Below, in pieces: positions 4,828 through 27,035 of a stretch of DNA of 64,000 bases. A model generated the notes under the pieces. It saw only the letters and a list, made by a program, of their open reading frames with translations, ran no database searches and was not told the origin of the DNA. Location: assembly GCA_000830295.1 (NCBI GenBank), contig CP010425.1, positions 928,001 through 992,000 of the forward strand, read 5' to 3'. Numbering within the stretch: the first letter of the stretch is position 1; every line of letters begins with the position of its first letter. A program made the position numbers and the translations under genes. The DNA comes from an archaeon GW2011_AR15 (lineage in GTDB: Archaea; Nanobdellota; Nanobdellia; Woesearchaeales; GW2011-AR15).

Positions 4828-4902
4828 ACTTTTCGAGAAGCAGGACTTATTTAAAAAATTTGAGGCTTATTGGCTATCTTAAACCAAAAATACAGTATGA
4901 TA

Positions 4903-5562
4903 CTAGTTTTTCTCTCCCCACTTTGAAATGCCGTGAAGGGCCTGCAGGGCTTTCATCTGGTCGTCTTCGTTGATTATGAAGATATGTTCGCTTCCGCATA
5001 TTACCCCGTCGATAATGCTTATATCGTTAAGCGCAAGCTCGCTTGTCAGCGCAGCGAAAACCCCGGGAGTTTCCTTTACATCCTCAGAGTAAATAATGCT
5101 TATCTCACCTATTTTCTTCTCAATCTCAACAATATCTTTTTTTGTGAAAAGCTCCTCTACTTTTTTGAGGTTGGCCTCATCTATCACTATTTTTACGAAC
5201 TGGCTCACTTCCAGTATCCTCAGAACTTCGCCTTTTGAGAAATCAATTTTATTATATAATTTTATCAGGGAATTCCTTACGTCCATTTCTTTCCTGAAGA
5301 GCACAGAAGCCATTCTTGTTCTTGAGGAGACTTTTGCTCCTGCAATAAGCTTGTACCTTTTCTTTATATACTCTTTTGGCTCTTCTTTTGTTTCGTATCT
5401 CCTTATCGCGCTTATCACAGCATCTATGGAAGATGAAAGCATAAGGTTCTTGTGGATGTACTTTGCCAGCGCCCTTGTATTGATTATTCCTCTTGTGAGG
5501 CCTCTTCTTATGGAAACGTCCTGCTCGATGAAATTTGTCACTTCATTCTGTATATTTGTCAT
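4903..5562 (-). CDS. Archaeal ACT-domain regulatory protein (N-terminal helical/HTH-like region)
   Basis: GIINTRALAKYI...AVISAIRRY N-terminus and a C-terminal ACT-like TPGVFAALTSELALNDISI. Confidence 0.8.
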   Translation of the reverse strand: MTNIQNEVTNFIEQDVSIRRGLTRGIINTRALAKYIHKNLMLSSSIDAVISAIRRYETKEEPKEYIKKRYKLIAGAKVSSRTRMASVLFRKEMDVRNSLIKLYNKIDFSKGEVLRILEVSQFVKIVIDEANLKKVEELFTKKDIVEIEKKIGEISIIYSEDVKETPGVFAALTSELALNDISIIDGVICGSEHIFIINEDDQMKALQALHGISKWGEKN

Positions 5563-12113: not shown

Positions 12114-13520
12114 ATGGGGACCGATAGTGACTTACTGAAAGGTATTGATGAGTATAAATTTGGCTTTAAAGATACCTCTAAGCCTGTCTTCAGGAGCAGG
12201 AAAGGCCTTGATGAGCTGGTTGTCAGGCAGATTTCAGAGCATAAGCATGAGCCTCAGTGGATGCTGGACTTCAGATTAAAGGCGCTGAAGCATTTCGAAA
12301 ACAGGCCAATGCCTGCCTGGGGAGCTGATTTATCGGGACTGAATCTCAATGAGATATATTTCTACACAAAGCCAGCTGGAAAAGAAGGAAAATCCTGGGA
12401 TGATGTTCCTGAAAACATAAAAAAGACATTTGAGAAGCTCGGGATACCAGAGGCAGAGCAGAAATTCCTGGCAGGAGTCGGAGCGCAGTATGAATCAGAG
12501 ATGGTCTACCACAACATAAAAGAGAGCCTTGCAAAGAAGGGCGTCATTTTCAAGAGCATTGAGCAGGGGCTCAGGGACCACCCAGATTTGTTCAGGGAAT
12601 ATTTCGGGAAGATCATTCCAATAGAGGACAACAAGTTTGCATCTCTCAACTCTGCTGTCTGGTCAGGAGGCTCATTTGTATATATCCCGAAAAACGTCAA
12701 GGTTGACCTGCCCCTTCAGGCATATTTCAGGATCAATGACCCGGACATGGGGCAGTTTGAGAGGACACTGATTATAGCAGACGAGGGCTCAGAAGCCCAG
12801 TATGTTGAGGGATGCACTGCACCCATATACACTACAGACTCATTCCACAGCGGAGTCATTGAAATAGTTGTGAAGCCGGGAGCAAGGTTCAGGTACACCA
12901 CAATCCAGAACTGGTCAAATAACATGTATAATCTTGTAACCCAGAGGGCATACGTTTACAGGGATGCAAAAATGGAATGGGTGGATGCGAATATAGGAAG
13001 CAAAGTTACGATGAAATACCCGTCATGCTACCTTCTTGAGGAAAAGGCTCACGGTGAGATACTTTCAATGGGATTTGCCTCAGGGCATCAGCATCAGGAT
13101 ACAGGAGGAAAGATGCTGCATTTTGCCCCGCATACAACAAGCAAGATAACTGCAAAGTCAATAAGCATGAAGGGAGGAAGGGCTTCATACAGGGGCCTGC
13201 TGGATATCAAGGAAAGCGCCTATGGCGCAAAATCAAATGTTGTCTGCGATGCCCTTTTGATGGATGAGGAATCCCGCTCGGATACATACCCCTATATGGA
13301 GATAAACGGGGATGATGCTACTGTCGGCCATGAGGCATCTGTTTCAAAAATAGGGGAGGAGCAGCTGTTTTATCTTACGAGCAAAGGTTTGTCTGCAGAT
13401 GAGGCAAGGTCAATGGTTGTCTCCGGATTCATAGAGCCGCTTGTAAAAGAGCTGCCAATGGAGTATGCAATAGAGATGAACAGGCTTATACAGCTGCAGA
13501 TGGAAGGTTCTGTGGGTTAG
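12114..13520 (+). CDS. sufB: Fe-S cluster assembly protein SufB
   Basis: [57 protein letters not shown]. Confidence 0.95.
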
Positions 13521-13521
13521 T

Positions 13522-14760
13522 TTAATCAGGTATTTTTAGAGGCAGGAAAATTATCAATGCTGCTAGTGCCATAACTGCAAGCGAACCCATTGCTATTCTG
13601 TGGGAAATTTCTGTTCCGAATACTGCCAGCGCGTGTACTGTAACTCCCCAGATCAGAGGCCCTATAATTGATGCAAACCTGCCTAACATCGCATACAGTC
13701 CAAAAAATTCAGTAAGCTGGTTGTGGGGCGAGAGCTTTGTAATAATTATCCTGTCGCCGCTCCAGATGCATCCCTCTATAAGTCCGGACAAAATTCCGAA
13801 TATTATAATTAATGTACGGGATTTCACCAAAGCCAGGCTAAATAAGCAAATTACAAGAAAAAACAGAACAGTTCTCTGAAACTTCTTAACTCCGAGCCTG
13901 TCAATAAGGTGCGCAGACAATAAACCCCCTATAATTGAAAATATTATCAGGAATGCAAAAAGATACTGGACCTCAGTATCTGAAAAGCCAAACACAGATG
14001 TAAAATAGATCGCCAGGAAAAAATATACTGTATGCATTGCATCGCTGTAAAAGAACCTGCTGATGTAATATCTAAGAGTGCCTGGGTATTTCTTTAAATT
14101 TCTGATTGTTTTCAGGACTCTGTTAACAGAATATTTAATGCTGACAGATGTTTTAATACTCCTGTTTTTCTCTTTTAAAAACACTAATGCAGGCAGTGCA
14201 AACATTAAAAATAGAAATGCAATCGGCAAAAAGGCCGCGCCTCTGCCGGATTTTGTAACTACAGGCAATAGGAGCAGGATAATCACTAAATATCCTACCT
14301 GTCCGAATGCAATGCCTATTCCGGATATCAGTCCTCGGTTTTTCTCGGTACTTACCTGAACAAGATATGAATCATATATCACCTGGCTTAGCTGCATTCC
14401 AAGGTATGCCAGCACATAGAATATAATAGAAAACAAAAGCCCGCCAAAGCCAAACAATGCAGTAAATATTACTGCCTGCAATGTGAAATAAACCAGGAAC
14501 CATTTCTTTTTATGGTGTTTATCCAGCAGCGCGCCAACAACAGGAGCAGTCAGGATAATTATTATTTGGGTAAAGACAACAACCCAGCTATAATGCAGTT
14601 CACTTAGGCCCATATCCTGAACAATCCAGAGAGGGAAATACAGCGTTCCGACCCCAAGCTGGAAGAATGAATTGGCAGCATCGTACAATATCCAGCTAAG
14701 CACAGCAGCCAAAGAGAGCTTTCCTTTGTCAGTCAGAGACTGGAATAGTTTATTTGCCAT
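13522..14760 (-). CDS. MFS transporter (UMF1/Atg22-like)
   Basis: About 12 TM. SWILYDAANS, YDSYL...RGLISGIG, EFFGLY..GRFASIIGP. Confidence 0.85.
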   Translation of the reverse strand: MANKLFQSLTDKGKLSLAAVLSWILYDAANSFFQLGVGTLYFPLWIVQDMGLSELHYSWVVVFTQIIIILTAPVVGALLDKHHKKKWFLVYFTLQAVIFTALFGFGGLLFSIIFYVLAYLGMQLSQVIYDSYLVQVSTEKNRGLISGIGIAFGQVGYLVIILLLLPVVTKSGRGAAFLPIAFLFLMFALPALVFLKEKNRSIKTSVSIKYSVNRVLKTIRNLKKYPGTLRYYISRFFYSDAMHTVYFFLAIYFTSVFGFSDTEVQYLFAFLIIFSIIGGLLSAHLIDRLGVKKFQRTVLFFLVICLFSLALVKSRTLIIIFGILSGLIEGCIWSGDRIIITKLSPHNQLTEFFGLYAMLGRFASIIGPLIWGVTVHALAVFGTEISHRIAMGSLAVMALAALIIFLPLKIPD

Positions 14761-15498: not shown

Positions 15499-16029
15499 TT
15501 AATTTATTACTGAAGGCAGATGCTCTCTTACTGCTTTTGCCAGCCCTTCATCTCCTGTCAGGGCAGTGATATGTTTTGGAATCTTTCCTTCTTTTGGCAG
15601 GCTTTCCATCATGTACTGAATCCCCCAAAGGCTTTTATCCAGCCCGTTTGGGGTATAACCAGAGGCATCGTATATCATGTTTATTACATAATCTAAAGAA
15701 GGTCTCAGGACAATGGAAGAATTTCCTTTATCCCTTTCAATTTCTATTATCACGATTTTTTCGCCAGATAAGCCATAGCCCAGGCCAATCATAGTCTCAT
15801 CGTCATTTTCCCTGAATTCTTTGTACAGACTCGGGTCGTTCAGCTCTATTGGGTTAATAATGACAGCAGTGTAAGGTTTTTTTTTATCTTTGTTCTGTGT
15901 CCATATCTTTAATTCATAGGCATGCTTGTGGACTACTAATCTTGTTTCTTCATCTGCAGGTGAGATCCCATCTATTTTTGTACTAGCATAATTTCGCCTG
16001 TGATCTATAAGTGGTTGTCTACAATCCAT
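15499..16029 (-). CDS. Hypothetical protein
   Basis: 176-aa ORF with an AAGGT SD-like element upstream. No recognised motif. Confidence 0.55.
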   Translation of the reverse strand: MDCRQPLIDHRRNYASTKIDGISPADEETRLVVHKHAYELKIWTQNKDKKKPYTAVIINPIELNDPSLYKEFRENDDETMIGLGYGLSGEKIVIIEIERDKGNSSIVLRPSLDYVINMIYDASGYTPNGLDKSLWGIQYMMESLPKEGKIPKHITALTGDEGLAKAVREHLPSVIN

Positions 16030-16172
16030 TTTTTTACCTTGTCCTTACTACCAACCAGTTAAGAGGCGGACGTAGTAATAAATAATTAATCCACCTAGTG
16101 TAGGTATACCTATTCTACTTATTTTAAAAAAATAAGACTGAAAAATTAGACAGCGCTGAATGAAAAAAAAGA

Positions 16173-16195
16173 TAGTGGGGAAAGGATCTAGAACC
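16173..16195 (-). repeat. Degenerate copy of the tRNA-iMet 3' end (att-like scar)
   Basis: TAGTGGGGAAAGGATCTAGAACC (16173-16195) versus TAGCGGGGAAAGGATTTGAACC (16268-16289). Both are preceded by an A-run. Confidence 0.6.
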
Positions 16196-16267
16196 AACTG
16201 AGAAATCAGTTGACACTTTGTGAGTTTCCTTTCAGTCAAGCTCACATAGAACTCTTTTATAAAAAAG

Positions 16268-16342
16268 TAGCGGGGAAAGGATTTGAACCTCCGACCTACG
16301 GGTTATGAGCCCGTCGGGCACTCCTGGCTGCCCTACCCCGCT
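16268..16342 (-). tRNA. tRNA-Met(CAT), initiator
   Basis: Reverse complement AGCGGGGTAGGGCAGCCAGGAGTGCCCGACGGGCTCATAACCCGTAGGTCGGAGGTTCAAATCCTTTCCCCGCTA. A1:U72 pair, three G-C pairs closing the CAT anticodon loop, CCA not encoded. Confidence 0.95.
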
Positions 16343-16491
16343 GCATAGGGTTCCAGAAAATTATATCTTTTATAAATGTTGTTCCATTTCTGAGCTTTTT
16401 AATCTCTTATCCTGGAAATAGATTTATATATTAAACCAGGTTTCTGGACATTATTTTATCATTAAAAAGTAGTTACTAGAAGGCGATTGGT

Positions 16492-17733
16492 GTGCTGAAC
16501 CCCTATACTGTAAAAGAACTCTGTAATCTGCCAGCAAATAGGCTGTATGACTTAACTCTGGACCCTAAAGCCAAAATTGCAGCTAATACTCCAAGACCAA
16601 AGGCAGACAGGAATTTCAGCCCAGGCGCACAGGCATATAAATTTACAAACGAAAATCTTGACAGCATAGTAGACGGGCTTAAGAAAGCCGAGATAGATCT
16701 GTCAGGAAAAACAGTTTTCAGTATTGCATGCTCGGGCGACCCTCTTATCCTCTTTTCAGCTCTTGGAGCTGACTACAATATAGCTTTTGATTCTTCATAC
16801 AAAGCTGTGGCCTGGACAGAGTTTAAATGCGCAATGGTTAGAACCCTCACGCATCATGATGCCCTTGCTTCTCTTGGGCAGGTTAACCTATTGAGGAGTT
16901 CAAAGTATTATCTAAAACTCAATAAGCCTAATCTAGGCATAGATGCAAAATCGCAGGGGTTTAAAACCCAATCCGGGATGCCATACATGTCCATAGAAAA
17001 AAACAGTACAGTTGCTGACGCCATCATAAGGCAGATGTCAAAATGGGCCGGTAGCATATTTGAGGAGCTCTTCAGAAACTATACTTTTGACAATATACCG
17101 CAAGGTGCACCTCCCCATTCTTTAAGGCAGGATTATATCTCCTGCATAATCCCGGAAGATGGAACATCACAGTCCTCAGATTTCTTCAGGGGAGGAAGTC
17201 ATGGGTATACAGGTGCATTTCCGGAACTGAATGGCTATCTAAAAGATAGAAGGCTGTATGAATCTGCCAGCAGGAATTTAGAGATGGAAGAGACGGCATT
17301 TATTCCAGGAGATATTTTTAAGATGATAGAAATGCTTCTTGGAGTAAAGCAATATAGGATATTTTCAAAAGATTTTTTTAAGAGGGATAAAAGAAAAGCC
17401 ACGAGATTTCTTGAGCAGTCACTAGATGCAGAGCAGAAAGCAGATCTATTCTATCTTTCAAATGTCCCAGATCACCTGAAAGATTCCAAAGGCAACAAAA
17501 AGTACCATTCTAAAGTATTCGGTCCATTTGCTGATATGGTATGCGGGCTCCTAAATCCCGGAGGGGCACTCATAATAAACCATGAGTGGAACGCTGAAAA
17601 GGAATTTAGGGATAATCCAGACCCGGATTCCAGCTTAGGCGAGTATTTAAAACAAGAGCATGGGCTTGAGAAGACAATATGTAGAGACGGCTCGGGATAT
17701 GGTTGCGAAGTGATATATACAAAGAGAAGGTGA
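16492..17733 (+). CDS. DUF3419/BtaA-like SAM-dependent transferase-fold protein
   Basis: YKFTNENL, LSGKTVFSIACSGD (motif I-like), AFD, GDI, DLFYLSNVPD, LLNPGG. Confidence 0.55.
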   Translation: MLNPYTVKELCNLPANRLYDLTLDPKAKIAANTPRPKADRNFSPGAQAYKFTNENLDSIVDGLKKAEIDLSGKTVFSIACSGDPLILFSALGADYNIAFDSSYKAVAWTEFKCAMVRTLTHHDALASLGQVNLLRSSKYYLKLNKPNLGIDAKSQGFKTQSGMPYMSIEKNSTVADAIIRQMSKWAGSIFEELFRNYTFDNIPQGAPPHSLRQDYISCIIPEDGTSQSSDFFRGGSHGYTGAFPELNGYLKDRRLYESASRNLEMEETAFIPGDIFKMIEMLLGVKQYRIFSKDFFKRDKRKATRFLEQSLDAEQKADLFYLSNVPDHLKDSKGNKKYHSKVFGPFADMVCGLLNPGGALIINHEWNAEKEFRDNPDPDSSLGEYLKQEHGLEKTICRDGSGYGCEVIYTKRR

Positions 17734-18818
17734 GAAAAATTTCAGAAGTCTATTTTATCTGTACAGGAAACACGTGCAGGAGCCCAATGGCTGAGGTCTA
17801 TGCTCAGCACACTTCAAAAGCATATGGCCTTGACAGGATCATTAATTTCCACTCAAGGGCACTAAAGCCCAGAGAGCTGCTCCTTGAAAAATTTTTCGGA
17901 GAGCTCGTCGCCTCTCCTATGAGCGAAACGGCATCTCCCGGGACTATAGAAGTAATATCCAAAAGACTGCCGGAGCAAAATGATGCTATAAGCTCCCATA
18001 GATCAATGGCACTGAAGAGGGAAGAAATTAAATCCGCTGATATAGTCTTAACTATGACAGCATCCCACAAAGATAATATACTGATTTATGCTCAGGATAT
18101 ACCGGATCTCGAAAAGAAGGTATTCACTCTAAAAGAGTATGCAAACTCAGTCAGCCATTACAGCGATTCAGCTGACATTGATGTTGTTGACCCCTATGGC
18201 GCAGGAGCAATACCAAACCTTACCAGTCTACTTTTAAGCAAGACAGACATAGAGATGCAAAAACTGGGAAGAAACTACCTGAAAAAAATAAAAGGTTATT
18301 TTGAAAGCAAGGCAAAAAAAATAAGAGAGAAAAAAGGCAATAGGGGTATTAGTTTCAGAACTAATGAATGGATAGCTAGGAGGGGATTCTCTTTCTGCGT
18401 ATACTCTGAAACCTTGGAAAATGTAACGCTTTCGCAAATCAGGAACCTTCGGTCTAGGCCGAGCCACTTTGTAAAGAGCCCTTTTGAGATATCCATAGAG
18501 ATTGACTCAGAAAGAAAAAAGGCGTATACTGAAACCTTTGATGAAATAAAAGAGGCAATTGACCATATATCCCCATCAGCCGCTCCTTATTCAAGCATAG
18601 GGTTGCCTTATATTATGAGGCCGAGAGCAAATGAAGATAGGCAGATTGTTAAAATGTGGTTAGCAGTAATAGAAAACCTGCTGCCTCAATATACTTCAGA
18701 TGCTGCAGAAGATAATGAAGTGAATAACATGCTGCTTAAGCTGACCAATTCTTCTTTAGACAATCTGCTGGGAAGGGGAAGGACGGAAATTCTGAAAAAG
18801 ATAAAGGGAGAAGAATGA
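17730..18818 (+). CDS. Low-molecular-weight phosphatase (YwlE-like) with internal insertion and C-terminal extension
   Basis: FICTGNTCRSPMAE P-loop, ADIVLTMT..HK, KVFTLKEY, VVDPYG. GTG start overlaps the upstream TGA (GTGA at 17730-17733). Confidence 0.8.
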   Translation: MRKISEVYFICTGNTCRSPMAEVYAQHTSKAYGLDRIINFHSRALKPRELLLEKFFGELVASPMSETASPGTIEVISKRLPEQNDAISSHRSMALKREEIKSADIVLTMTASHKDNILIYAQDIPDLEKKVFTLKEYANSVSHYSDSADIDVVDPYGAGAIPNLTSLLLSKTDIEMQKLGRNYLKKIKGYFESKAKKIREKKGNRGISFRTNEWIARRGFSFCVYSETLENVTLSQIRNLRSRPSHFVKSPFEISIEIDSERKKAYTETFDEIKEAIDHISPSAAPYSSIGLPYIMRPRANEDRQIVKMWLAVIENLLPQYTSDAAEDNEVNNMLLKLTNSSLDNLLGRGRTEILKKIKGEE

Positions 18819-20377
18819 AAGATCTAGAAAAACTGCTTGAAAATGTACTTTTTGTCTGCACAGGAAACACATGCAGAAGCCCAATGGCCGAGGCTATATA
18901 CAGGCAACTTGCTGGGGAATTAAGACCAGATCTAGATACAGAAGTCAAATCAGCAGGCCTTAGTATAGATCCTTATTCACTTGACAGATTTTCAGATATA
19001 CCTTTTTTTGACGGTGAACATATGAGAGAAAGCATAAAGAGACTTGGTCTCGGTATTGGGATATCCGAAGATACGCTAAGCGTCCTTGAAGAATGGAGAG
19101 GGGGAATTTCAGAGGGATACATAAACAGGAAACCAAGGCAGCTTGTAAAAAAAGACCTTAAGGATGCAAGCCTCGTTCTCGTTATGGAAAGGGCACATTA
19201 TACCACCCTAATGAGAGATTTTGGCAAAAAAATAACGGACCTTGAAAAAAAACTTTACCTAATGACAGAATTTGCCAATCTTCCAGGAGAGGTCACAGAT
19301 CCTCTTCGCCTCCCTAAGCAATATATTGTCTGCAGAGAGACTATGATTGAGGCCGTAACCAATATACTTACTGGAAAGATAGCAAAACATAAAGAAATTA
19401 TTGAACACAGGAAGACAGCAAACCTAATAGAAGGGAGATATTCCCGCCAAAGGGAAATATCAGACAGAATGGATATAATGTGGGAGCTTGCAAAGACCCT
19501 GATAGCAGAATATGGCAGCCTAAACGAATCAGGAAAAGGCAGTGCTCTAAATATAATTGATACAATATATTCGTCCAGGCAAATTATACCTCCACTTCCA
19601 GATGAAGCAAATAACATCACATTAAAAAAATGGAGAAAAGATTATGAGAAAATTGAAAGGCATAATGAAGCAATGTGGGAGAGATTTATTTATTCGGCTT
19701 ATTTAAAAGGTGAAACAGGGCATCCAAAGTCAGGAAATAAAAGGATACTTGACATAGTCCAATCGGCACTAGAAAGGAGAAGCTACCGGGAGAACACAGA
19801 AGAGATATTCACAATATACGCGGGCTCAAAATACCTAAGAAAACACAGCAGGGAAATAAAACGCAGCGATTCTAGGAAAGAAGAGATATATGAAGTAACC
19901 AAAGCCTCAGATATGCTGTTTAGGGGCAACAACATAAGAGAAAAAACCGGGCATGATAATATCTCCCTGGATTATGCTTTTCAGTTCTTTGATTTAGTTC
20001 AAAGAAAGCTAAGGGAAGACTCCTTTAGTATTAGTCTTTACAAGATAGCAGGAAGCCTCAATCTAATGGGAATAAACCGTAGAAGTCTGGATAATGTATA
20101 CCATATCTTGGAAGAACAGGGAGAAGCGTCACTGGAAGGACTGATGAGGCTGGCAGAAAAAAAGCTGAAATCATTCAACCCCCCTACCGATGCGATATTG
20201 GCTCTTCTTCAGGAGGGTTATCAGCTGGACGTGAAAAATGAAAATGATATGGTCTCAATCCGTGATGCTTTGCGCAATAGAATGAACAGAGTCGGCATGT
20301 TAGATAAAATTAAGGATGCTTCAGAATATGCCTCCAGAGAATATTTTCTTGATCATAGGAAAACAAATCTAGGTTAA
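18815..20377 (+). CDS. Low-molecular-weight phosphatase (YwlE-like) fused to a ~330-aa helical domain
   Basis: LFVCTGNTCRSPMAE, SAGL, ASLVLVME..H, VTDP. ATGA overlap with the upstream gene. Confidence 0.8.
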   Translation: MKDLEKLLENVLFVCTGNTCRSPMAEAIYRQLAGELRPDLDTEVKSAGLSIDPYSLDRFSDIPFFDGEHMRESIKRLGLGIGISEDTLSVLEEWRGGISEGYINRKPRQLVKKDLKDASLVLVMERAHYTTLMRDFGKKITDLEKKLYLMTEFANLPGEVTDPLRLPKQYIVCRETMIEAVTNILTGKIAKHKEIIEHRKTANLIEGRYSRQREISDRMDIMWELAKTLIAEYGSLNESGKGSALNIIDTIYSSRQIIPPLPDEANNITLKKWRKDYEKIERHNEAMWERFIYSAYLKGETGHPKSGNKRILDIVQSALERRSYRENTEEIFTIYAGSKYLRKHSREIKRSDSRKEEIYEVTKASDMLFRGNNIREKTGHDNISLDYAFQFFDLVQRKLREDSFSISLYKIAGSLNLMGINRRSLDNVYHILEEQGEASLEGLMRLAEKKLKSFNPPTDAILALLQEGYQLDVKNENDMVSIRDALRNRMNRVGMLDKIKDASEYASREYFLDHRKTNLG

Positions 20378-20378
20378 A

Positions 20379-21674
20379 ATGGCATTGACACCAAAACTTG
20401 AAGAGCTGCTCACTGACACCAGATTAATGAACGAGGAGCACGACTTTCTTGTTGAATACATACAACCAAGACTGCATCATTTCTTTTTGAAAGACCAGGA
20501 ACAAATCTTGACAAGATACCGGGCCATTGTAGAGAATAGGCAGAAATTCGAGAGATCATTCCCTGAAGGAGAATACAGCAGGTCAGTTATAGGTCTAGAA
20601 GGGATAGTGCAACTTCCGGAAAGTCCTTATGACATGCTGGGATTATTTTCTAGAGCCATAATAACAATGAATAATAAAACACTACATGAAATGTACAGGT
20701 ATTTTGACAAAAACTCTCTTGATACTATAAGAAGCAACATAAACGGCAGGCGCCTATATTCGAAAATAAGGGCATATCTTAATGGGGATTTGAATAAAGC
20801 CTCAGCAAGAGAACTCATAGCTATATTCAGAGATGGGCTAAACCCTAACAACCGCAAGCTGGAGAGAATCCTGGATTATATCAAGAAAGCCATAGAATCT
20901 GATAAATTTGAAAATGCGTCGTATATTGTAGCAAGAGTAAATACCCCCAGGATAGATTATACCCAGGACAAAGGCAAAACAGGAAGCTGTGCTTTTTTGG
21001 GCATTCTTGAGGGCGGCCATAATCCCCACTATCAGAGGGATCTTAACTCAAGGTACCATGCATCTTTACTCTATATGGCTGATCCTGAAATTGGGATACT
21101 GGCATTGCAGGTTCAGAGAAAAAACAGGCTGGAGCATCCTTCAGGACTGCTTATAATGGCGGATCTGATTGGGAAGAAAACAAAAAACAGCAAAAAAGAG
21201 AGATATCTTCTTGTTGATTCTGTAGAGGCCTACAGACATAGCTATGACACCAGATTTGCAGGAGACATGCCTCTAAGGGAGATGGATAAAAATACATGGA
21301 CCAAAACGCTGAAAGAAGGGCTTCTGAATCTGGCTGCCAGAACAGAGCACGATTATATTTTTTATAATCCAAGATTTTATAATCCGGGAGGAAAAGAATT
21401 TACAAAAAAATTTATAAGCTCTATAAAGGAAAATGGTTACCAAGTTGAGACAAGCACTGTCACTTTCTGGAAAAAACTTGGGGATTCGGCCATACCAAAG
21501 GGATTCAACTATGAGTTTGGATATTACCTTGATGCATTTATGCCATCAGGTAACCCGAGATATTTCAGTGCTGCGGACCCTGAGCACGCAACCCAAGGAA
21601 TTAAGAATATACAGGGAAGAAAGGCAAGAGGGTATGTTATAAGCAGGCCAAAAGGCGGATGGCTTTGTCCTTAA
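20379..21674 (+). CDS. Hypothetical protein (helical N-terminus, possible alpha/beta enzymatic C-terminus)
   Basis: 431-aa ORF tightly coupled to both neighbours. GSCAFL, LYMADPE and YLLVDSVE segments. Confidence 0.65.
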   Translation: MALTPKLEELLTDTRLMNEEHDFLVEYIQPRLHHFFLKDQEQILTRYRAIVENRQKFERSFPEGEYSRSVIGLEGIVQLPESPYDMLGLFSRAIITMNNKTLHEMYRYFDKNSLDTIRSNINGRRLYSKIRAYLNGDLNKASARELIAIFRDGLNPNNRKLERILDYIKKAIESDKFENASYIVARVNTPRIDYTQDKGKTGSCAFLGILEGGHNPHYQRDLNSRYHASLLYMADPEIGILALQVQRKNRLEHPSGLLIMADLIGKKTKNSKKERYLLVDSVEAYRHSYDTRFAGDMPLREMDKNTWTKTLKEGLLNLAARTEHDYIFYNPRFYNPGGKEFTKKFISSIKENGYQVETSTVTFWKKLGDSAIPKGFNYEFGYYLDAFMPSGNPRYFSAADPEHATQGIKNIQGRKARGYVISRPKGGWLCP

Positions 21675-22252
21675 TGCAAGAAGAGATAATAATAAGAAAG
21701 GCAGAGTCAGGAGATTTAGACGGCATAATGAGGGTTGAGGAAGAGTCTTTCCTCCCTGGCGATAGGTATCCAAGGAGGTATATATCTGATGAGATTAAAA
21801 ACCAAGATAGCCAAAGACAGTATTTTGTTGCTGAATATAATAGAAGGATTGTAGGTTACTCGGCTGCCGGCATCCAGGAAAGCGGGACAGCGCTCATGGG
21901 CCCTGTTTCTGATGTTGAAAAAGAACTTGGGATCCATCTGGAAGCAACCAGAGTGGGTGTTCTTATAAGTTTGGGGGTAATAAAGGAAGAAAGAAGGAAA
22001 AATATAGGGGGTATGCTAACGCAGGCCAGGCTGAGATGGATTGAGAATAATCTGGAGGACGATAAAAAGTATGTGTTTGCCCATGCATGGCCGAATGGCG
22101 GATTCAACTACCTAGCAAAAAGCTTCGGTTTCAGGAGAGTAATGAACTGGGATAACAGAGAAGCCTATTCAGATGATAGCCATGCAATATTGTATTTCCT
22201 TGACCTAAACCTGCAAGGTAAAAACGATCTTCAGACTGTTATTATTTTATAG
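21674..22252 (+). CDS. GNAT family N-acetyltransferase (RimI-like)
   Basis: IIRKAESGDLDGIMRVEEESF, FVAEYNRRIVGY, SLGVIKEERRKNIGGML (acetyl-CoA motif A), FGF. TAATG overlap puts the start at 21674. Confidence 0.85.
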   Translation: MQEEIIIRKAESGDLDGIMRVEEESFLPGDRYPRRYISDEIKNQDSQRQYFVAEYNRRIVGYSAAGIQESGTALMGPVSDVEKELGIHLEATRVGVLISLGVIKEERRKNIGGMLTQARLRWIENNLEDDKKYVFAHAWPNGGFNYLAKSFGFRRVMNWDNREAYSDDSHAILYFLDLNLQGKNDLQTVIIL

Positions 22253-22309
22253 TAGTTAAGACTTAGAAAACTTTATATATTTCCGGCAGATACCGAGGAA
22301 AGAGGGGAT

Positions 22310-24784
22310 ATGGCTAAAAGTGTCAATGGATTAGAGGCGATACTTAAGAATACGGCCTCCTCTGATTTGAGAAGAGCCATATCCAAAAGTAAGTTCCCAG
22401 AAAGCACTTCCTTACTCTTTCTTGACGGAAAAAGCATCGGGACAAGCGCCGACCCTGGTAAAATTAAAGCAGGCACTTACAGGATTGAGTTATGGGATGA
22501 AGAACTGGATATAAAATACCCTTTTTCTATCCCTGATATTGGGCTGGATAGTAAAACTCCCGAGGAGCTTACCGAATATGGCATTAGTGCAAATGAAGCA
22601 GCACCCAGACTAGTCAGGCTTGGAGCCTCACTTTACTCTCTTCTTGAGAAAAAACCACTATTTCAAACTACTGCTGAACTGGAGGATAAATCCAGGAATT
22701 ACAAAGAAGAAATCATGAAGAAAGGAGGCACTTACGAGCCGTTTCATATTGCAAGAGAAATAACCCGCGACTATATACCCCAGGATCTTAATTTAAGAGA
22801 TATTCTTGAAGCAATAAGGGAACTATATAAGGGGAGGGATAGGATGGAGACTACAGTATCATATATTCCTTTCTCAATGGATAGCATAAGAGGGAAGGTG
22901 GCTGTTGCTTCTTTCACAGGTGAAAAAGACGGGCTTCATGGGATGATAAGATTTAATGGAGCTGAGCTAAAATTTGGAGATATCGGCCTTGCGAGATATA
23001 AAAAAAAGATAGGTCATTTGTTTGACACAGTCACTAAGCTGGAAAGAGATCTTATGCAGGCTGAAACCAGTTTAGATGACAAGGGATTTATTTATACAAT
23101 CTCCGCTGGAGCAGAAGGGAACTATATCTTTAGAATAAGCAAAAGACCATATACAGAGCCGGAGATTAGGTTAGAAAGACTCATGGGGGCATATAATTCC
23201 AAAAAAATAAGTATTTCTGATTTAATGGGTAAATTAACGCAGGATCTTCTAGTACATTATGAAGAATTTGAAACTAAAGGCATTAAAGGTGTGAAGACAG
23301 GTGCAACTCCGTCAGGAAGCGGCCTTGCAATAGGCACACTAATACTGGATTCTGCTGAAAAAATTAATGAACTGGCTAAGAATCAGGAGTTTATCCTTGT
23401 ATCAAGAAGGGATGATTCGGATATTGGCAAAGCACTTTATGATAAGAGATGCGTAGGCTATATCAACCCTACAGCAAGCAAATCCCACCATTACGTTATT
23501 CTGGCGGGGAATCTTAACATCCCGGTATTGCACAGTAGCCCATCATTAAAAATTGATAATGATGAGATGCAAGTCTCAGAAGGCGAAGAAGAATATTTTA
23601 ATGATTTTGATACTGTCAGCGTTGATTTTGGTAACTCCCTGATATATCCTAAAAAACTCAAGGTTATAAAAAAAGAAAATAAGGGTTTGGAGAAACTGTT
23701 TGAGATTATAAAGGAGAACCAAAGTATTTCCGTATATGTAAACGCAGATTCTCCGAAAAAGATAAGGGAAGCACTTGAGAATGGGGCCAGAGGGATTGGT
23801 CTCTGCAGAACTGAAAGAATGTTTTATCATCCGCCCTATATGCAGATGCTGCAGAGGATTATACTAAGTGCATATAACTGCAATAATGAGAAGCATAAGA
23901 TAGAAAAGCATAGCATGAAAAAAGACCTCTCTCTCTTAGGAAAATACCTCTCAGATGCCTTCCTGGAGATGTACTCTGCAGCAGATGGGCTTCCTGTTGT
24001 TATAAGACTCCTGGATCCACCGCTCCATGAATTTATAAAAAGAGATATCCAGGAGTATGGCTGGAATGAATTCTCGTATAACCTCGGGGTATGTGCCAAG
24101 TGCGACAAGCCGGATTTTAAAACTTTGGAGGAGGCTAATCCAGCACTAGGGCTCAGAGGGGTAAGGGTTGGTATAGAAAGGCCCGAGATATACAAAGCCC
24201 AGATTGGCGCTATAATGACTGCAGCCGCAAGAGCAAAAAAAGAAGGCAAAAAAGTTATTCCCCAGATTTTAATACCTTTTGTTAATTCCACTGAAGAGAT
24301 TAATATTATAAGGGGCTATATTGAAGAAATGAGGCAGACAGCGGAATCTAGCTACGGAATTCATATAGATTATAAGATAAGGGCAATGATTGAGACTCCA
24401 GCAGCATTATCTAGGATGCCTCAGATAGCTGAAGCAGTAGACGGGATAAGCTTTGGAACAAATGACCTTACCCAGGCATGGATGGGACTTGACAGGGAAA
24501 CAGCAGACAGCATAGGCAGCATATACTCTTCAAGGGGAATCAGCATAGGAGAGCCGTTTTCAAGACTCGATGAGGGGCTTATCCGGGAGATGGAGCTAAG
24601 AATAGATGAGACAAGAGAAAAAATTAAAAAATCAGGCAGGGAATTTACAATATCAGTCTGCGGTGAGCAGGCAGCGCATGAGATAGGAAGATTGCACAAT
24701 ATCGGCATAGATTATGTAAGTATTTCCCCGGGGAAATTAGATTTATCAATTATAGAAAGTGTAAAGTTGAGGTATCATGGCTAA
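22310..24784 (+). CDS. PEP-utilising enzyme, PPDK-derived (phospho-His swivel plus PEP-binding barrel; N-terminal ATP domain degenerate)
   Basis: NADSP, GARGIGLCRTERMF, IRLLDPPLHEF, EANPALGLRGVR, MIETP, SFGTNDLTQ, CGE. Swivel SHHYVILAGNLNIP aligns to TSHAAVVARxLGIP. Confidence 0.8.
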   Translation: MAKSVNGLEAILKNTASSDLRRAISKSKFPESTSLLFLDGKSIGTSADPGKIKAGTYRIELWDEELDIKYPFSIPDIGLDSKTPEELTEYGISANEAAPRLVRLGASLYSLLEKKPLFQTTAELEDKSRNYKEEIMKKGGTYEPFHIAREITRDYIPQDLNLRDILEAIRELYKGRDRMETTVSYIPFSMDSIRGKVAVASFTGEKDGLHGMIRFNGAELKFGDIGLARYKKKIGHLFDTVTKLERDLMQAETSLDDKGFIYTISAGAEGNYIFRISKRPYTEPEIRLERLMGAYNSKKISISDLMGKLTQDLLVHYEEFETKGIKGVKTGATPSGSGLAIGTLILDSAEKINELAKNQEFILVSRRDDSDIGKALYDKRCVGYINPTASKSHHYVILAGNLNIPVLHSSPSLKIDNDEMQVSEGEEEYFNDFDTVSVDFGNSLIYPKKLKVIKKENKGLEKLFEIIKENQSISVYVNADSPKKIREALENGARGIGLCRTERMFYHPPYMQMLQRIILSAYNCNNEKHKIEKHSMKKDLSLLGKYLSDAFLEMYSAADGLPVVIRLLDPPLHEFIKRDIQEYGWNEFSYNLGVCAKCDKPDFKTLEEANPALGLRGVRVGIERPEIYKAQIGAIMTAAARAKKEGKKVIPQILIPFVNSTEEINIIRGYIEEMRQTAESSYGIHIDYKIRAMIETPAALSRMPQIAEAVDGISFGTNDLTQAWMGLDRETADSIGSIYSSRGISIGEPFSRLDEGLIREMELRIDETREKIKKSGREFTISVCGEQAAHEIGRLHNIGIDYVSISPGKLDLSIIESVKLRYHG

Positions 24785-26138
24785 AAAAAAACCAGGCAGG
24801 CTTTCTATAGAAGATAAGGTGGCGCTATTCAAAAATCTGAACAATTATAACGAGATTGCCCTGGATAGTATGGAGATGCCAATAGAGATTTTAGAGCGCG
24901 GATATCTTTTTTATTCTCCCGGGAGCATATCTGCTAGTGTTACCCGCAGCATACAGGGTATTGGGGGGATGATAGATACATATGAGAGAGTTTCGCGGAA
25001 AAAACTCGAGAAGGAAGAGAAAAGGCACATCAGCAAAGTCCAGAGCATAGCAGCAGAAATTGCTGCAGAGCTTGACCAAGCCGTGTTTTCTGAAAATCAG
25101 GAAAAAATCAACCAAGAATATAAAAGGTATATAACAGGAGTCAGGGATATCAGGGAGAAGTTTTCCGATTCCGGAGCAGAGTCTATAATTGAAACCAAAA
25201 CAATCCATGAGTTAATCCGTGTTCTCCATCAGCTTGGAATAAAAAATGCTTTTAAGCTGCCAAAAGCACCTACTTCAAAAAAGCGTTCCATGGGAGATTT
25301 TCACCATACCGCTGCAGCCCTTTATATCATAGACATAGGCGGGGCAATAAGAAAAGGCGCCCAAGATAAGTATTATAATCTTAGCATAGAAGATGTGGTA
25401 AATCCGCAGCTTGCAAAAATAGCCTCTATATATTCATCAATAGAGAAAAGGAATGAAGGAAGGGAAGACGGCAACCTTTTTGTTTCAGGAAAAGAACTTC
25501 TTGGTAGCATATCTCTTGGGGCTCATGCGTTTGAAATAGTAACCTCATTTGAATCCGGCCAGCAAATGATACTAATCAGATATAAAGACACTTCACCAGG
25601 CTCCTACAAATATGCAGGGCACAGAATAAAAGCATTCAGTCAGGCACTTTTAGATCTTGGATTCAAGAGCAGCACCGACCGGCAATTCCTGAAAGCGCAT
25701 TACTACGGGGAAAACCTTGAAAGCTCAATTGAAAAGTTCGGAAAACTCTGGACAATAGCTATGTCAACTAAGGACCTTGATGTAGATGAGTCACCAATAG
25801 GTAAGGCATATCACTTTGTAGTTCAGTCCTTTAAAGAAGGGATACTGAATGTTGAGGCTCTGGCAAAGTTTTATGTTAATGTAAGAAAAAAGATGAACAA
25901 CGCCAATAGTGATAAGAAGATGAATATTCTAATGGATGAGCTTAAAAAATCAGCATCTAAGTATAGTGTAACAGAAAATGAATTCGCATTTGCAATAAGA
26001 TATACTGCTATGCTGCTTGAGCGTGAAATAAAAAAAGAACTAGGAAAAAAAGCTTTGAATGAAAAAATGGCAGGAAGATTTGCAGCACTATATGCAGAAA
26101 TAGATAAACGAGGCCAGGATAACTATCTGAAGCCATAG
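24777..26138 (+). CDS. Hypothetical protein, possibly a PEP-synthase-associated domain
   Basis: 453-aa ORF overlapping the upstream stop. KTIHELIRVLHQ, LYIIDIGG, LGAH and KDLD segments. Confidence 0.6.
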   Translation: MAKKKPGRLSIEDKVALFKNLNNYNEIALDSMEMPIEILERGYLFYSPGSISASVTRSIQGIGGMIDTYERVSRKKLEKEEKRHISKVQSIAAEIAAELDQAVFSENQEKINQEYKRYITGVRDIREKFSDSGAESIIETKTIHELIRVLHQLGIKNAFKLPKAPTSKKRSMGDFHHTAAALYIIDIGGAIRKGAQDKYYNLSIEDVVNPQLAKIASIYSSIEKRNEGREDGNLFVSGKELLGSISLGAHAFEIVTSFESGQQMILIRYKDTSPGSYKYAGHRIKAFSQALLDLGFKSSTDRQFLKAHYYGENLESSIEKFGKLWTIAMSTKDLDVDESPIGKAYHFVVQSFKEGILNVEALAKFYVNVRKKMNNANSDKKMNILMDELKKSASKYSVTENEFAFAIRYTAMLLEREIKKELGKKALNEKMAGRFAALYAEIDKRGQDNYLKP

Positions 26139-26220
26139 CTTCTTTATGGTATAAATATCAATACTCTTCTCATGTTTTTCTACCGCCAAACTTATAAATA
26201 GCACGGGATTTCAGCTACAT

Positions 26221-26568
26221 ATGGGTAAAAAAGAAAGAGAAGAGCAGGCAGCCCAGGAAGCATTTCAGGAAGAGCTTAGAAGAATCAAGCTGCCAAGAGG
26301 AATCCAGGTAATAGGTGTGCTTGACCAAAGGGTCGGAGGCTCGCGTTCTTTAGTAAGGTGCATGGATGGAAAAACAAGAAACTGCAGGATTCCCGGAAGG
26401 TTGAAAAGAAGCCTATGGGTAAGGCCCGGAGATGTTGTGCTTGTTGAGCCATGGGAGCTTAACCAGGATGACAAGGGGGATATTATTTTCAAATACTCCA
26501 AGGCCCAGATAAACCTTCTTAAGAAAAGAGGGTTGCTCAAGGAAATGGATGAATTTAGCGGGTTCTAA
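26221..26568 (+). CDS. eif1a: Translation initiation factor aIF-1A
   Basis: RIKLPR, VRCMDGKTRNCRIPGRLKRSLWVRPGDVVLVEPWE, KGDIIFKY. Confidence 0.95.
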   Translation: MGKKEREEQAAQEAFQEELRRIKLPRGIQVIGVLDQRVGGSRSLVRCMDGKTRNCRIPGRLKRSLWVRPGDVVLVEPWELNQDDKGDIIFKYSKAQINLLKKRGLLKEMDEFSGF

Positions 26569-26645
26569 TTATATTACTTATTAGTAGTAACAAAACAGAA
26601 AGCTTTATATATAGGCAGCTGCTCACATCTATAAAGGTGAGCCTA

Positions 26646-27035
26646 ATGTTGGAAACAATTAGAAAACTTGACTCAAAGATAAGACACGCTTTTATACTTG
26701 CAAAAAGGGATATTTATGACCTGAGGGCAGCTGTAAAGATGCAGCAGGAAGTCATAAAGAAGCTAAGCGACAGCCAGAAAACACTGCTGGCCAGAATAGA
26801 GAAGCTGGAAAAAGCCAGGACAGTTGTTAAAACAATCAAAGTTGCGCAGCCAAAAGTTATTAGGACAAAGGTAATAAGGGCAAAAAAGACATATGTTGGA
26901 GCTAAGACAACACAGAAAGTCCACAGCATGGACTGTCCGTTCGGAAAGAACATAAAGCCAAAGAACAAGGTAATCTTTAGGACAAAGACAAAGGCTTTCA
27001 ATGAAGGTTTCAGCGCATGCGACTGCCTGCGTTAA
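26646..27035 (+). CDS. Coiled-coil protein with C-terminal Ada-like metal-binding tail
   Basis: SD GGTGA 5 nt before ATG 26646. YVGAK..KVHSMDCPF...GFSACDC. Confidence 0.7.
   Translation: MLETIRKLDSKIRHAFILAKRDIYDLRAAVKMQQEVIKKLSDSQKTLLARIEKLEKARTVVKTIKVAQPKVIRTKVIRAKKTYVGAKTTQKVHSMDCPFGKNIKPKNKVIFRTKTKAFNEGFSACDCLR

Follow-up and report, generated by a model that had tools for sequence, protein, structure and literature searches.

The seven-gene island described here (p1 to p7), located at positions 16492-26138 of a 64,000-nucleotide stretch of the archaeon GW2011_AR15 (contig CP010425.1, positions 928,001 to 992,000; G000:C1:928001-992000; this whole stretch is hereafter called the window), encodes proteins whose closest described relatives belong to several separate systems. 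The genome is a single contig of 1.158 Mb from a DPANN archaeon. The relative nearest to the sixth protein, p6, is pyruvate phosphate dikinase (PPDK; TIGR01828; structures 1kbl, 5jvl and 1vbg). The two have the same order of three domains (824 amino acids (aa) in p6 versus about 870-900 in PPDK), the invariant residues of the TIM barrel for phosphoenolpyruvate (PEP) and pyruvate, and the catalytic His, and PPDK structures are the best fold matches of p6. Unlike PPDK, p6 scores below the equivalog cut-off, has no match to PPDK_N or PF00391, has lost the ATP-grasp motifs, sits on a long branch outside the PPDK clade of its own order, and is coupled to an ORFan. Enzyme I (PtsI) of the phosphotransferase system (PTS) also combines a PEP barrel with a swivel His, and passes phosphate from PEP to a protein acceptor, for which reason it may serve as a working analogy for p6. 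However, TIGR01417 recognizes the p6 barrel only (107 bits against a cut-off of 341), there is no match to the EIN/HPr-binding domain (PEP-utilisers_N) at E<=0.1, and the p6 N-terminus derives from an ATP-grasp domain; p6 is clearly nearer to PPDK than to enzyme I. A possible precedent, by analogy, for a phosphotransferase made of p6 and p7 comes from HpeHI, PpsAB and RPH, swivel-His enzymes that are split into two polypeptides, of which HpeHI and RPH are described in PMC12167813 as re-tooled two-component phosphotransferases for non-nucleotide acceptors. These enzymes keep the ATP-grasp domain and exchange the PEP barrel for a substrate-binding domain, which is the opposite of what is seen in p6, and p7 has no similarity to any of their components.

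The other proteins of the island have relatives of different kinds. The YwlE-type arginine phosphatases (Bacillus subtilis YwlE, 1zgg and 4kk3; 4pic; DARP) are the closest solved relatives of the catalytic domains of p2 and p3, with an identical P-loop. The known enzymes of this type consist of one domain of about 150 aa and counteract the kinase McsB, whereas p2 and p3 carry insertions and, in addition, extensions of 190 and 340 aa, respectively, for which no relatives were found. Naa60, SSO0209/Ard1 and RimI are the best sequence matches of p5, although p5 reaches only 20 bits against the RimI equivalog cut-off of 86. GNAT is the sole fold class among the listed structural matches of p4, despite the absence of sequence similarity between p4 and any GNAT.

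Based on the present data, it is very likely that the window contains a real, inserted and strain-specific island with the domain identities given below. The island is a lineage-specific accessory block of about 9.8 kb, placed between the divergent promoters of the initiator tRNA gene (tRNA-iMet) and the gene for translation initiation factor aIF-1A in one population. What it does is a more tentative matter: with a probability of roughly 0.3, p6 is predicted to be an enzyme-I-like PEP:His phosphocarrier within a cytoplasmic group-transfer toolkit. The genes and the internal promoter-like element of the island are as follows.

16492-17733, + strand: p1, 413 aa, predicted divergent DUF3419/BtaA-like Rossmann transferase of the S-adenosylmethionine (SAM) type with extra insertions; DUF3419 below cut-off, remote homologue in genome G021
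17730-18818, + strand: p2, predicted YwlE-type low-molecular-weight (LMW) Cys phosphatase with a C-terminal extension of about 190 aa; LMWPc E 1.9e-17, PDB matches
18815-20377, + strand: p3, 520 aa, second predicted YwlE-type phosphatase, with an internal insertion and, at its C-terminus, an extension of 340 aa; LMWPc E 9e-15
20379-21674, + strand: p4, 431 aa, helical N-terminal part and, at about residues 180-431, a C-terminal domain that probably has a GNAT fold, from fold comparison of models
21659-22252, + strand: p5, 197 aa (192 aa from ATG 21674), GNAT of the protein N-alpha-acetyltransferase type; Acetyltransf_1, PDB matches
22268-22284, + strand: TATA-like box (TTTATATA) in the 57-nt gap upstream of p6, read from the sequence
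22310-24784, + strand: p6, 824 aa, PPDK-derived PEP-utilizing enzyme; Pfam, TIGR01828, alignments, AlphaFold2 (AF2) model, Foldseek
24777-26138, + strand: p7, 453 aa, basic ORFan that starts within the end of p6

The seven open reading frames (ORFs) are tightly packed on the + strand, with tRNA-iMet on the left and aIF-1A on the right, and are uninterrupted (197-824 aa) in a genome of 42% GC. The p1/p2 junction is a GTGA overlap (17730-17733), the p2/p3 junction an ATGA overlap of 4 nt (18815-18818) and the p4/p5 junction a TAATG overlap (21672-21676); p3 and p4 are separated by a spacer of 1 nt at 20378, and p6 and p7 overlap by 8 nt. The length of p2 is 362 aa if translation starts from GTG 17730, or 371 aa if it starts from TTG 17703. 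Boxes of the type TTTATATA lie about 60 nt upstream of p1 and about 30 nt upstream of p6, and a hairpin with a T-run is located at the p7 stop. The box at 22268-22284 is probably the promoter of a p6-p7 operon, and the island as a whole consists of two predicted operons, p1-p5 and p6-p7. The genes and their junctions agree with an earlier note on this DNA, which had listed seven co-oriented genes between tRNA-iMet and aIF-1A with coupled junctions and a second TATA box.

Proteins encoded by the island

Three regions can be distinguished in p6: a degenerate ATP-grasp domain (residues 1 to about 330), a divergent swivel with His394 (about 330-455) and an intact PEP/pyruvate barrel (456-809). Pfam recognizes the barrel only (PEP-utilizers_C, PF02896, E 1.1e-57); PPDK_N (PF01326) was not detected by Pfam, and neither was the PEP-utilizers mobile domain (PF00391) at E<=0.1. 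TIGR01828 aligns over model positions 375-855 only and gives 290.1 bits against the equivalog cut-off of 843.45. In an alignment of 61 sequences that combines p6, PPDKs from its own order and the top database matches, p6 keeps all 31 invariant columns, which include H394 and the barrel residues R500, E502, R566, D569, E695, N718, D719 and C784. The less strictly conserved positions behave differently between regions: p6 keeps 76 of 113 in the barrel versus 8 of 26 in the ATP-grasp N domain, the lowest value among the 61 sequences, and the GGKGANL, VRSGA and QGEDVV stretches are unrecognizable. This asymmetry between a kept PEP site and His and a lost nucleotide site is the sole feature of p6 that argues for a changed function over plain drift, and because of it an enzyme-I-like role is the one that we favor.

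The divergence of p6 is extreme. A HMMER search against 1.84 billion representative proteins returned 10,211 relatives at E<=0.001 and no orthologue among them; apart from a 412-aa fragment of p6 itself, the best match is 32% identical (E 5e-63). Among the best 150 matches, the self fragment set aside, no best-scoring stretch begins before query residue 227, and a similarity search with residues 1-330 returned nothing, not even p6 itself. In a FastTree phylogeny of the C-terminal 481 columns, the p6 terminal branch measures 2.34 versus a median of 0.63 (3.7-fold), and p6 falls outside the PPDK clade of its own order. The AF2 model of p6 has a mean predicted local distance difference test score (pLDDT) of 76.7, with values below 50 for residues 1-56, about 50-70 for residues 57-280, and confident values for the C-terminal two-thirds. 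Foldseek placed PPDK structures at the top for this model (TMq up to 0.73 over about 800-840 columns), a result that is not independent of the PPDK alignment supplied to the model. The sole other PEP-utilizing protein of the genome is encoded by a PEP-synthase-like gene at C1:198121. A search of open-access literature (main texts) found no paper on PPDK derivatives without an ATP domain.

Four PPDK-like proteins from public metagenomes (P0017, P0015, P0009 and P0107; 809-839 aa) have normal swivel and PEP domains and no PPDK_N that Pfam can detect. They are 4 of 10 top matches that were picked for short length or a long N-terminal alignment, and they keep 60-68% of the conserved N-domain positions. 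The literature search returned no paper on proteins of this kind either.

The partner protein p7 found only its own cluster among 5.8e9 protein clusters. It had no relatives in viral contigs, plasmids (tblastn), PDB, Pfam, PHROGs or PADLOC, the viral search being one that detects close relatives only. In a search of 400 other genomes from the order, p7 had matches at E<=0.01 in 4 (best 7e-4 per genome), which were treated as chance in view of the 400 tests. The ESM Atlas model of p7 is poor (pLDDT 0.42), with no usable structural neighbors. Two public variants of p7 from the same population (the P0181/P0182 set) differ in structure: one has a chimeric N-terminus, its first residues (about 103) being exchanged for a Cys-rich N-terminus of 33 aa that is encoded nowhere in the genome, and the other has an in-frame gap of about 15 residues. 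These variants may have arisen by rearrangement of the p6/p7 junction within the population, or they may be chimeras produced during assembly.

Both phosphatases score well above the LMWPc cut-off of 23.2 bits (p2, 64 bits; p3, 55 bits). In each, the P-loop reads CTGNTCRS, has Thr as its fifth residue and precedes PMAE, and both have a DP general acid that aligns to that of 4egs and YwlE (the p2 motif is DPYG). The closest solved chains of p2 are 4egs, 1zgg, 4kk3 and 4pic. According to PMC7772506, the Thr at P-loop position 5 is critical for phosphoarginine specificity in YwlE and DARP. We predict p2 and p3 to be YwlE-type, or phosphoarginine-type, Cys phosphatases, and the proposal of two CTGNTCRS phosphatases with large extra domains was borne out. 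The p3 C-terminal extension matched none of 300 other genomes of the order. No McsB-type ATP:guanido phosphotransferase (PF00217) was found in the genome at E<=0.1, and a B. subtilis control was positive. A third LMW phosphatase elsewhere in the genome is short and has a different loop. A 398-aa LMW phosphatase with an extension in genome G011 was considered as a relative and rejected, as it has an N-terminal extension and an ArsC-like loop.

The two phosphatases are 26% identical to each other, and an all-against-all BLASTP comparison of the island protein parts gave the relation between their N-terminal parts as the sole paralogy. Despite this low protein identity, the DNA of the two P-loops (17753-17796 in p2, 18850-18893 in p3) is 89% identical over 44 nt, which may reflect strong constraint or local gene conversion.

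The assignment of p1 is indirect. DUF3419 (PF11899) scores 16.8 bits on p1 itself, below the cut-off of 28.2, and 41.4 bits on the remote homologue in genome G021 (E 2.7e-6 per genome). The likeness between p1 and this homologue is limited to the N-terminal 100 residues or so, and CSGD and LSNVPD motifs are common to p1 and its remote homologues. The putative membership of p1 in the DUF3419 family is thus linked only through an intermediate; the earlier call of a BtaA/DUF3419-like enzyme holds in this sense, with p1 alone falling short of the threshold. A search of genome contigs, which detects close relatives only, gave no confirmed relatives of p1, a PDB sequence search gave chance-level rows only, and no paper on DUF3419 in archaea was found in the open-access main texts. 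Matches of p1 to class D beta-lactamases (12-18 bits on a 45-residue stretch) were dismissed as chance.

For p4, sequence searches gave no match in Pfam or NCBIfam, its own cluster only among protein clusters, and no confirmed relatives in viral contigs, the last search detecting close relatives only. Structural comparison was more informative. Residues 180-390 of the ESM Atlas model (pTM 0.57) align to GNATs; the AF2 model is poor (pLDDT 49), but its confident core points the same way, and all 50 of the 50 listed VIA rows are of GNAT fold (Z 7.3-8.7, 122-177 residues aligned). Foldseek gave no match at E<=0.001, and a PDB search with a profile of the p4 family gave chance-level rows only. The p4 C-terminal domain, as judged from these models, probably has a GNAT fold. 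Significant matches were obtained in 2 of 400 other genomes of the order (G199 and G280), and a profile added a third (G323); the corresponding loci are L033:136-2346, L032:1311-3170 and L042:8088-10220. The G199, G280 and G323 members have HEAT-like repeats of about 38 aa followed by a C-terminal domain of about 270 aa in common with p4, in which Cys-Ala-Phe and LLVDSVE motifs are conserved, and those at L033 and L032 have no Pfam match. They define an unannotated DPANN protein family with a GNAT-like domain behind HEAT-like repeats, so that p4 can no longer be called an orphan, as it had been at first.

The GNAT call for p5 holds, Acetyltransf_1 (PF00583) scoring 27.3 bits against a cut-off of 20.7. 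Its closest solved chains are Naa60 and the archaeal N-terminal acetyltransferase SSO0209; in the alignment with Naa60, its acetyl-CoA loop is a variant (RKNIGG versus RKHGIG). Three other GNATs are encoded elsewhere in the genome.

Insertion between tRNA-iMet and aIF-1A

The position of the island was defined by comparison with the same-genus genome G003, using the following landmarks.

16267-16342, - strand: tRNA-Met (CAT), initiator-type, left landmark; ARAGORN, Rfam RF00005 60 bits, flank kept in G003
16381-26190, no strand: inserted segment of about 9.8 kb, approximate extent relative to G003, from locus comparison
26221-26568, + strand: aIF-1A, right landmark outside the island; Pfam eIF-1a E 1.4e-18

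The tRNA has an A1:U72 pair and a GGG/CCC anticodon stem, which we take to be features of archaeal initiator tRNAs, and an Rfam scan detected tRNA only. In G003 (locus L015), the gene order is ileS, rnhB, a 350-aa ORF, tRNA-Met (- strand) and aIF-1A (+ strand), with tRNA-Met at 4883-4958 and aIF-1A starting at 5030, which leaves 72 nt between them. Since both flanks are recognizably conserved between G003 and the window, on one side next to the tRNA and on the other in the TATA/leader before aIF-1A, the extra DNA can be placed at about 16381-26190. The distance from rnhB to aIF-1A is 0.3-1.5 kb in 3 of 4 same-genus loci, and aIF-1A is 76-83% identical across the four genomes. A tblastn comparison of p1-p7 with 12-19 kb around aIF-1A in these four genomes gave no match. 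Searches of whole genomes detected no p6 orthologue in any of 5 same-genus genomes, no match to p7 or p4 in the 3 sampled, and none to p1 or the p3 extension in the 1 sampled; p2 and p5 were compared with the same-genus aIF-1A loci.

It should be noted here that the island lies on the 5' (promoter) side of tRNA-Met and not at the tRNA 3' end. A Pfam scan found no integrase domain in the island, and neither direct repeats bracketing 16381-26190 nor terminal repeats were found; the integrase and the tRNA-3'-derived flanking repeats that mark a tRNA-targeting integrative element are thus both missing here.

The composition of the island also sets it apart. Six of the island genes reach 200 aa; when scored against 732 genome ORFs of this size, they fell between the 7th and 14th percentiles for GC3 and between the 11th and 27th for codon fit. 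CTA accounts for 14.7% of Leu codons in the island versus 4.8% genome-wide, a threefold difference, and TTA for 11.9% versus 8.7%; the GC content is 0.404 versus 0.434 for all coding sequence. A higher AT content and a richer use of CTA and TTA codons had been noticed by eye in the earlier note, and this profile confirms both. Its description of the region as horizontally acquired or fast-evolving likewise fits the insertion relative to a same-genus genome, the deviant codon usage and the very long p6 branch.

The locus DNA was found in 20 sequencing runs, all of them DNA contigs from groundwater or soil metagenomes. Contigs from three other runs carry an identical island sequence, and both island borders are spanned by contigs; four other runs gave no contig joint that bypasses the island. 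Among contigs there are 4 single-base differences in coding sequence, all synonymous.

Proposed function and alternatives

The mechanism that we propose starts from p6, which would take the phosphoryl group of PEP onto His394. The enzyme would still be charged by PEP because all catalytic motifs of the PEP barrel and the His are kept, whereas the loss of the ATP-grasp motifs would prevent onward transfer of the phosphoryl group to AMP/PPi. In this way p6 may have become a PEP-charged phospho-His carrier, similar to enzyme I of the PTS, that serves a non-nucleotide acceptor. The first candidate for this acceptor would be the translationally coupled p7, or a molecule bound by p7. The phosphatases p2 and p3, steered by their own extensions, would act as erasers of N- or O-linked phosphate, whether on these targets or on different ones. 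Further groups would be attached to cytoplasmic targets by the acyltransferases and the SAM-dependent enzyme. None of the seven proteins has a membrane or signal-like segment (maximum 19-residue hydropathy 1.57, versus 2.61 for the neighboring transporter), and the role in host manipulation that was once suggested for the island finds no support in this respect.

Several observations weigh against this proposal. The swivel that would carry the phosphate is the most eroded part of p6, with 9 of 38 conserved positions kept and PF00391 undetected; the description of p6 in the earlier note as a PPDK derivative with an intact PEP barrel, a phospho-His and an eroded ATP domain therefore holds in all these points and needs correction with regard to the swivel. 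MAFFT aligns a few relics of the ATP-grasp domain in p6, namely an N-terminal Lys and R-x-x-K-R at about residues 275-279; these come from a 9-sequence alignment and are alignment-dependent, and because of them p6 may have retained some residual nucleotide chemistry. YwlE-type phosphatases occur widely where McsB is absent, and for this reason the P-loop Thr is by itself no proof of phosphoarginine substrates. No homologous cluster was found elsewhere. The remote homologues of p1 (G021 and G102) and p4 (G199, G280 and G323) lie among unrelated neighbors, with no phosphatase, PPDK-like or GNAT partner: the p1-like genes are found beside radical-SAM/ATP-grasp or APH-kinase/SDR genes, and members of the p4 family have either lamin-tail, PIN, nucleotidyltransferase and ThiI genes or genes of nucleoside salvage as their neighbors. 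As far as it could be applied, the co-occurrence of homologues that had been put forward as a check went against a shared system, the reading of the genes as one PEP-driven writer-eraser system is not supported, and co-occurrence cannot support one here because there are no orthologues in the data searched. Finally, 11 amino-acid substitutions and one in-frame gap were counted among 13 public protein variants from this population. Such protein variants cannot reveal synonymous changes; at this low diversity, and with 11 substitutions on record, the four synonymous differences are too few to show purifying selection.

Alternative explanations differ in how much of the island they treat as a unit. 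At one extreme, p6 would be a fast-evolving yet working PPDK that was acquired, and the other six genes would be unrelated neighbors with no common pathway. This is compatible with a genome that has no other PPDK and a PEP-synthase-like protein as its sole other PEP-utilizing enzyme, with the superposition of the full-length p6 model on PPDK structures over about 800-840 columns, with the possible ATP-grasp relics, with the existence of PPDK_N-negative PPDK-like proteins in public data (4 of 10 chosen matches), and with the promoter-like box that p6-p7 have for themselves, apart from p1-p5. We nevertheless consider it unlikely, as p6 keeps 8 of 26 N-domain positions, the lowest of 61 sequences, where other PPDK_N-negative proteins keep 60-68%; GGKGANL, VRSGA and QGEDVV cannot be recognized in it, and its residues 1-56 remain below a pLDDT of 50 even with the PPDK alignment. 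Moreover, PPDK is absent from 5 of 5 same-genus genomes searched, and its function is therefore not needed in the genus. The loss of any function, with the island as decaying acquired DNA that is open by chance or recency, is very unlikely. The lack of relatives, the deviant composition, the erosion of two of the three p6 domains, the low-confidence AF2/ESM models of p4 and p7, and the amino-acid variants and in-frame deletion in the population could all be read in this way, but the island has seven uninterrupted frames (197-824 aa) with coupled starts and stops, intact catalytic motifs in p2, p3 and the p6 barrel, an unchanged sequence in several samples, and synonymous changes at 4 of 4 contig single-nucleotide polymorphisms (SNPs).

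The other alternatives keep the genes together and change the target. One is the tailoring of a small molecule or of the cell envelope, in which p6/p7 would make a PEP-derived or phosphorylated intermediate, the phosphatases would trim it, and the GNAT-fold and DUF3419 enzymes would acylate or alkylate it. Every recognizable domain class has small-molecule members: arsenate-reductase-type LMW phosphatases score on p2 and p3, GNATs acting on sugars and amines are among the p4 fold matches, BtaA-type DUF3419 enzymes act on lipids, and the genes beside p1 homologues look biosynthetic. Against this stand the nearest relatives themselves, which are protein N-terminal acetyltransferases for p5 and protein arginine phosphatases for p2 and p3. 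Moreover, the island encodes neither a transporter nor a glycosyltransferase nor any further scaffold enzyme, and no homologous cluster was found anywhere in the data searched, so that tailoring appears quite unlikely. Slightly less probable again is a mobile-element cargo or an antiviral or conflict system that acts, in defense or counter-defense, through protein modification. A strain-specific insertion by a tRNA gene with deviant codon usage would suit it, as would the ORFan content and extreme divergence typical of conflict genes, the GNAT-fold toxins (7byy, TacT2, AtaT) among the p4 fold matches, and the rearranged or truncated p7 of public variants. On the other hand, none of the 7 proteins has a match in PADLOC-DB 2.0 at E<=0.01, which speaks against the antiviral role raised in the earlier note. 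The single match beyond that threshold, of p4 at E 0.031, looks like chance, and PHROGs returned generic phosphatase and acetyltransferase families only. No integrase, transposase, terminal repeat or relative on viral contigs was found. The tRNA has the island at its 5' side, and no contig joint in the four runs leaves the island out.

A bolder version of the phosphocarrier proposal would make the island an archaeal PEP:protein N-phosphotransferase module, in which p6, with p7 as adaptor or first acceptor, drives the phosphorylation of protein Arg or His by PEP in place of ATP, and p2 and p3, with their extensions as targeting domains, erase it. We regard this as a long shot; if true, Archaea would have their first case of phosphoarginine signaling, and a PEP-driven protein kinase-like writer would be on record for the first time beyond the PTS. 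For the phosphocarrier proposal as such, a p6 that acts as a PEP-charged phospho-His enzyme without nucleotide chemistry would show that the path from a dikinase to an enzyme-I-like phosphocarrier was taken, after the PTS, a second time and independently. Such a p6, in a genome that encodes two phosphoarginine-type phosphatases and no McsB, would also point to an N-phosphorylation biology in DPANN archaea. With a single population as its only known source, the island is probably of narrow biological reach; two side results may be of wider relevance, namely the PPDK-like proteins without a detectable ATP-grasp domain in metagenomes and the DPANN family of HEAT-like/GNAT-like proteins. Independently of function, the locus illustrates cleanly how a symbiont-type genome of 1.16 Mb acquires a set of extremely diverged enzymes, here at an intergenic hot spot between a tRNA gene and aIF-1A.

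Neighborhood of the island

The surroundings of the island are variable as well. In the window, ileS and rnhB are separated by sufB and the gene for an MFS transporter (12114-14760), whereas they are adjacent in the same-genus genome G004. A 176-aa gene to the left of the tRNA (15499-16245) and a 132-aa gene to the right of aIF-1A (26637-27035) have no match in the four same-genus loci. An echo of the tRNA-iMet 3' end occurs 95 nt further downstream on the tRNA strand (16166-16187 compared with 16261-16282, 86% identity over 22 nt); this echo lies on the side opposite to the island, within a 65-aa ORF. Two further observations concern the region between p5 and p6. Contigs of two other runs have a one-base deletion at 22260, in the intergenic sequence just upstream of the TATA-like box. 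The segment 22240-22280, which covers this box, is 76% identical over 41 nt to 26572-26612, upstream of the small gene at 26637, and this likeness may reflect a shared promoter type or be a trace of the insertion event.

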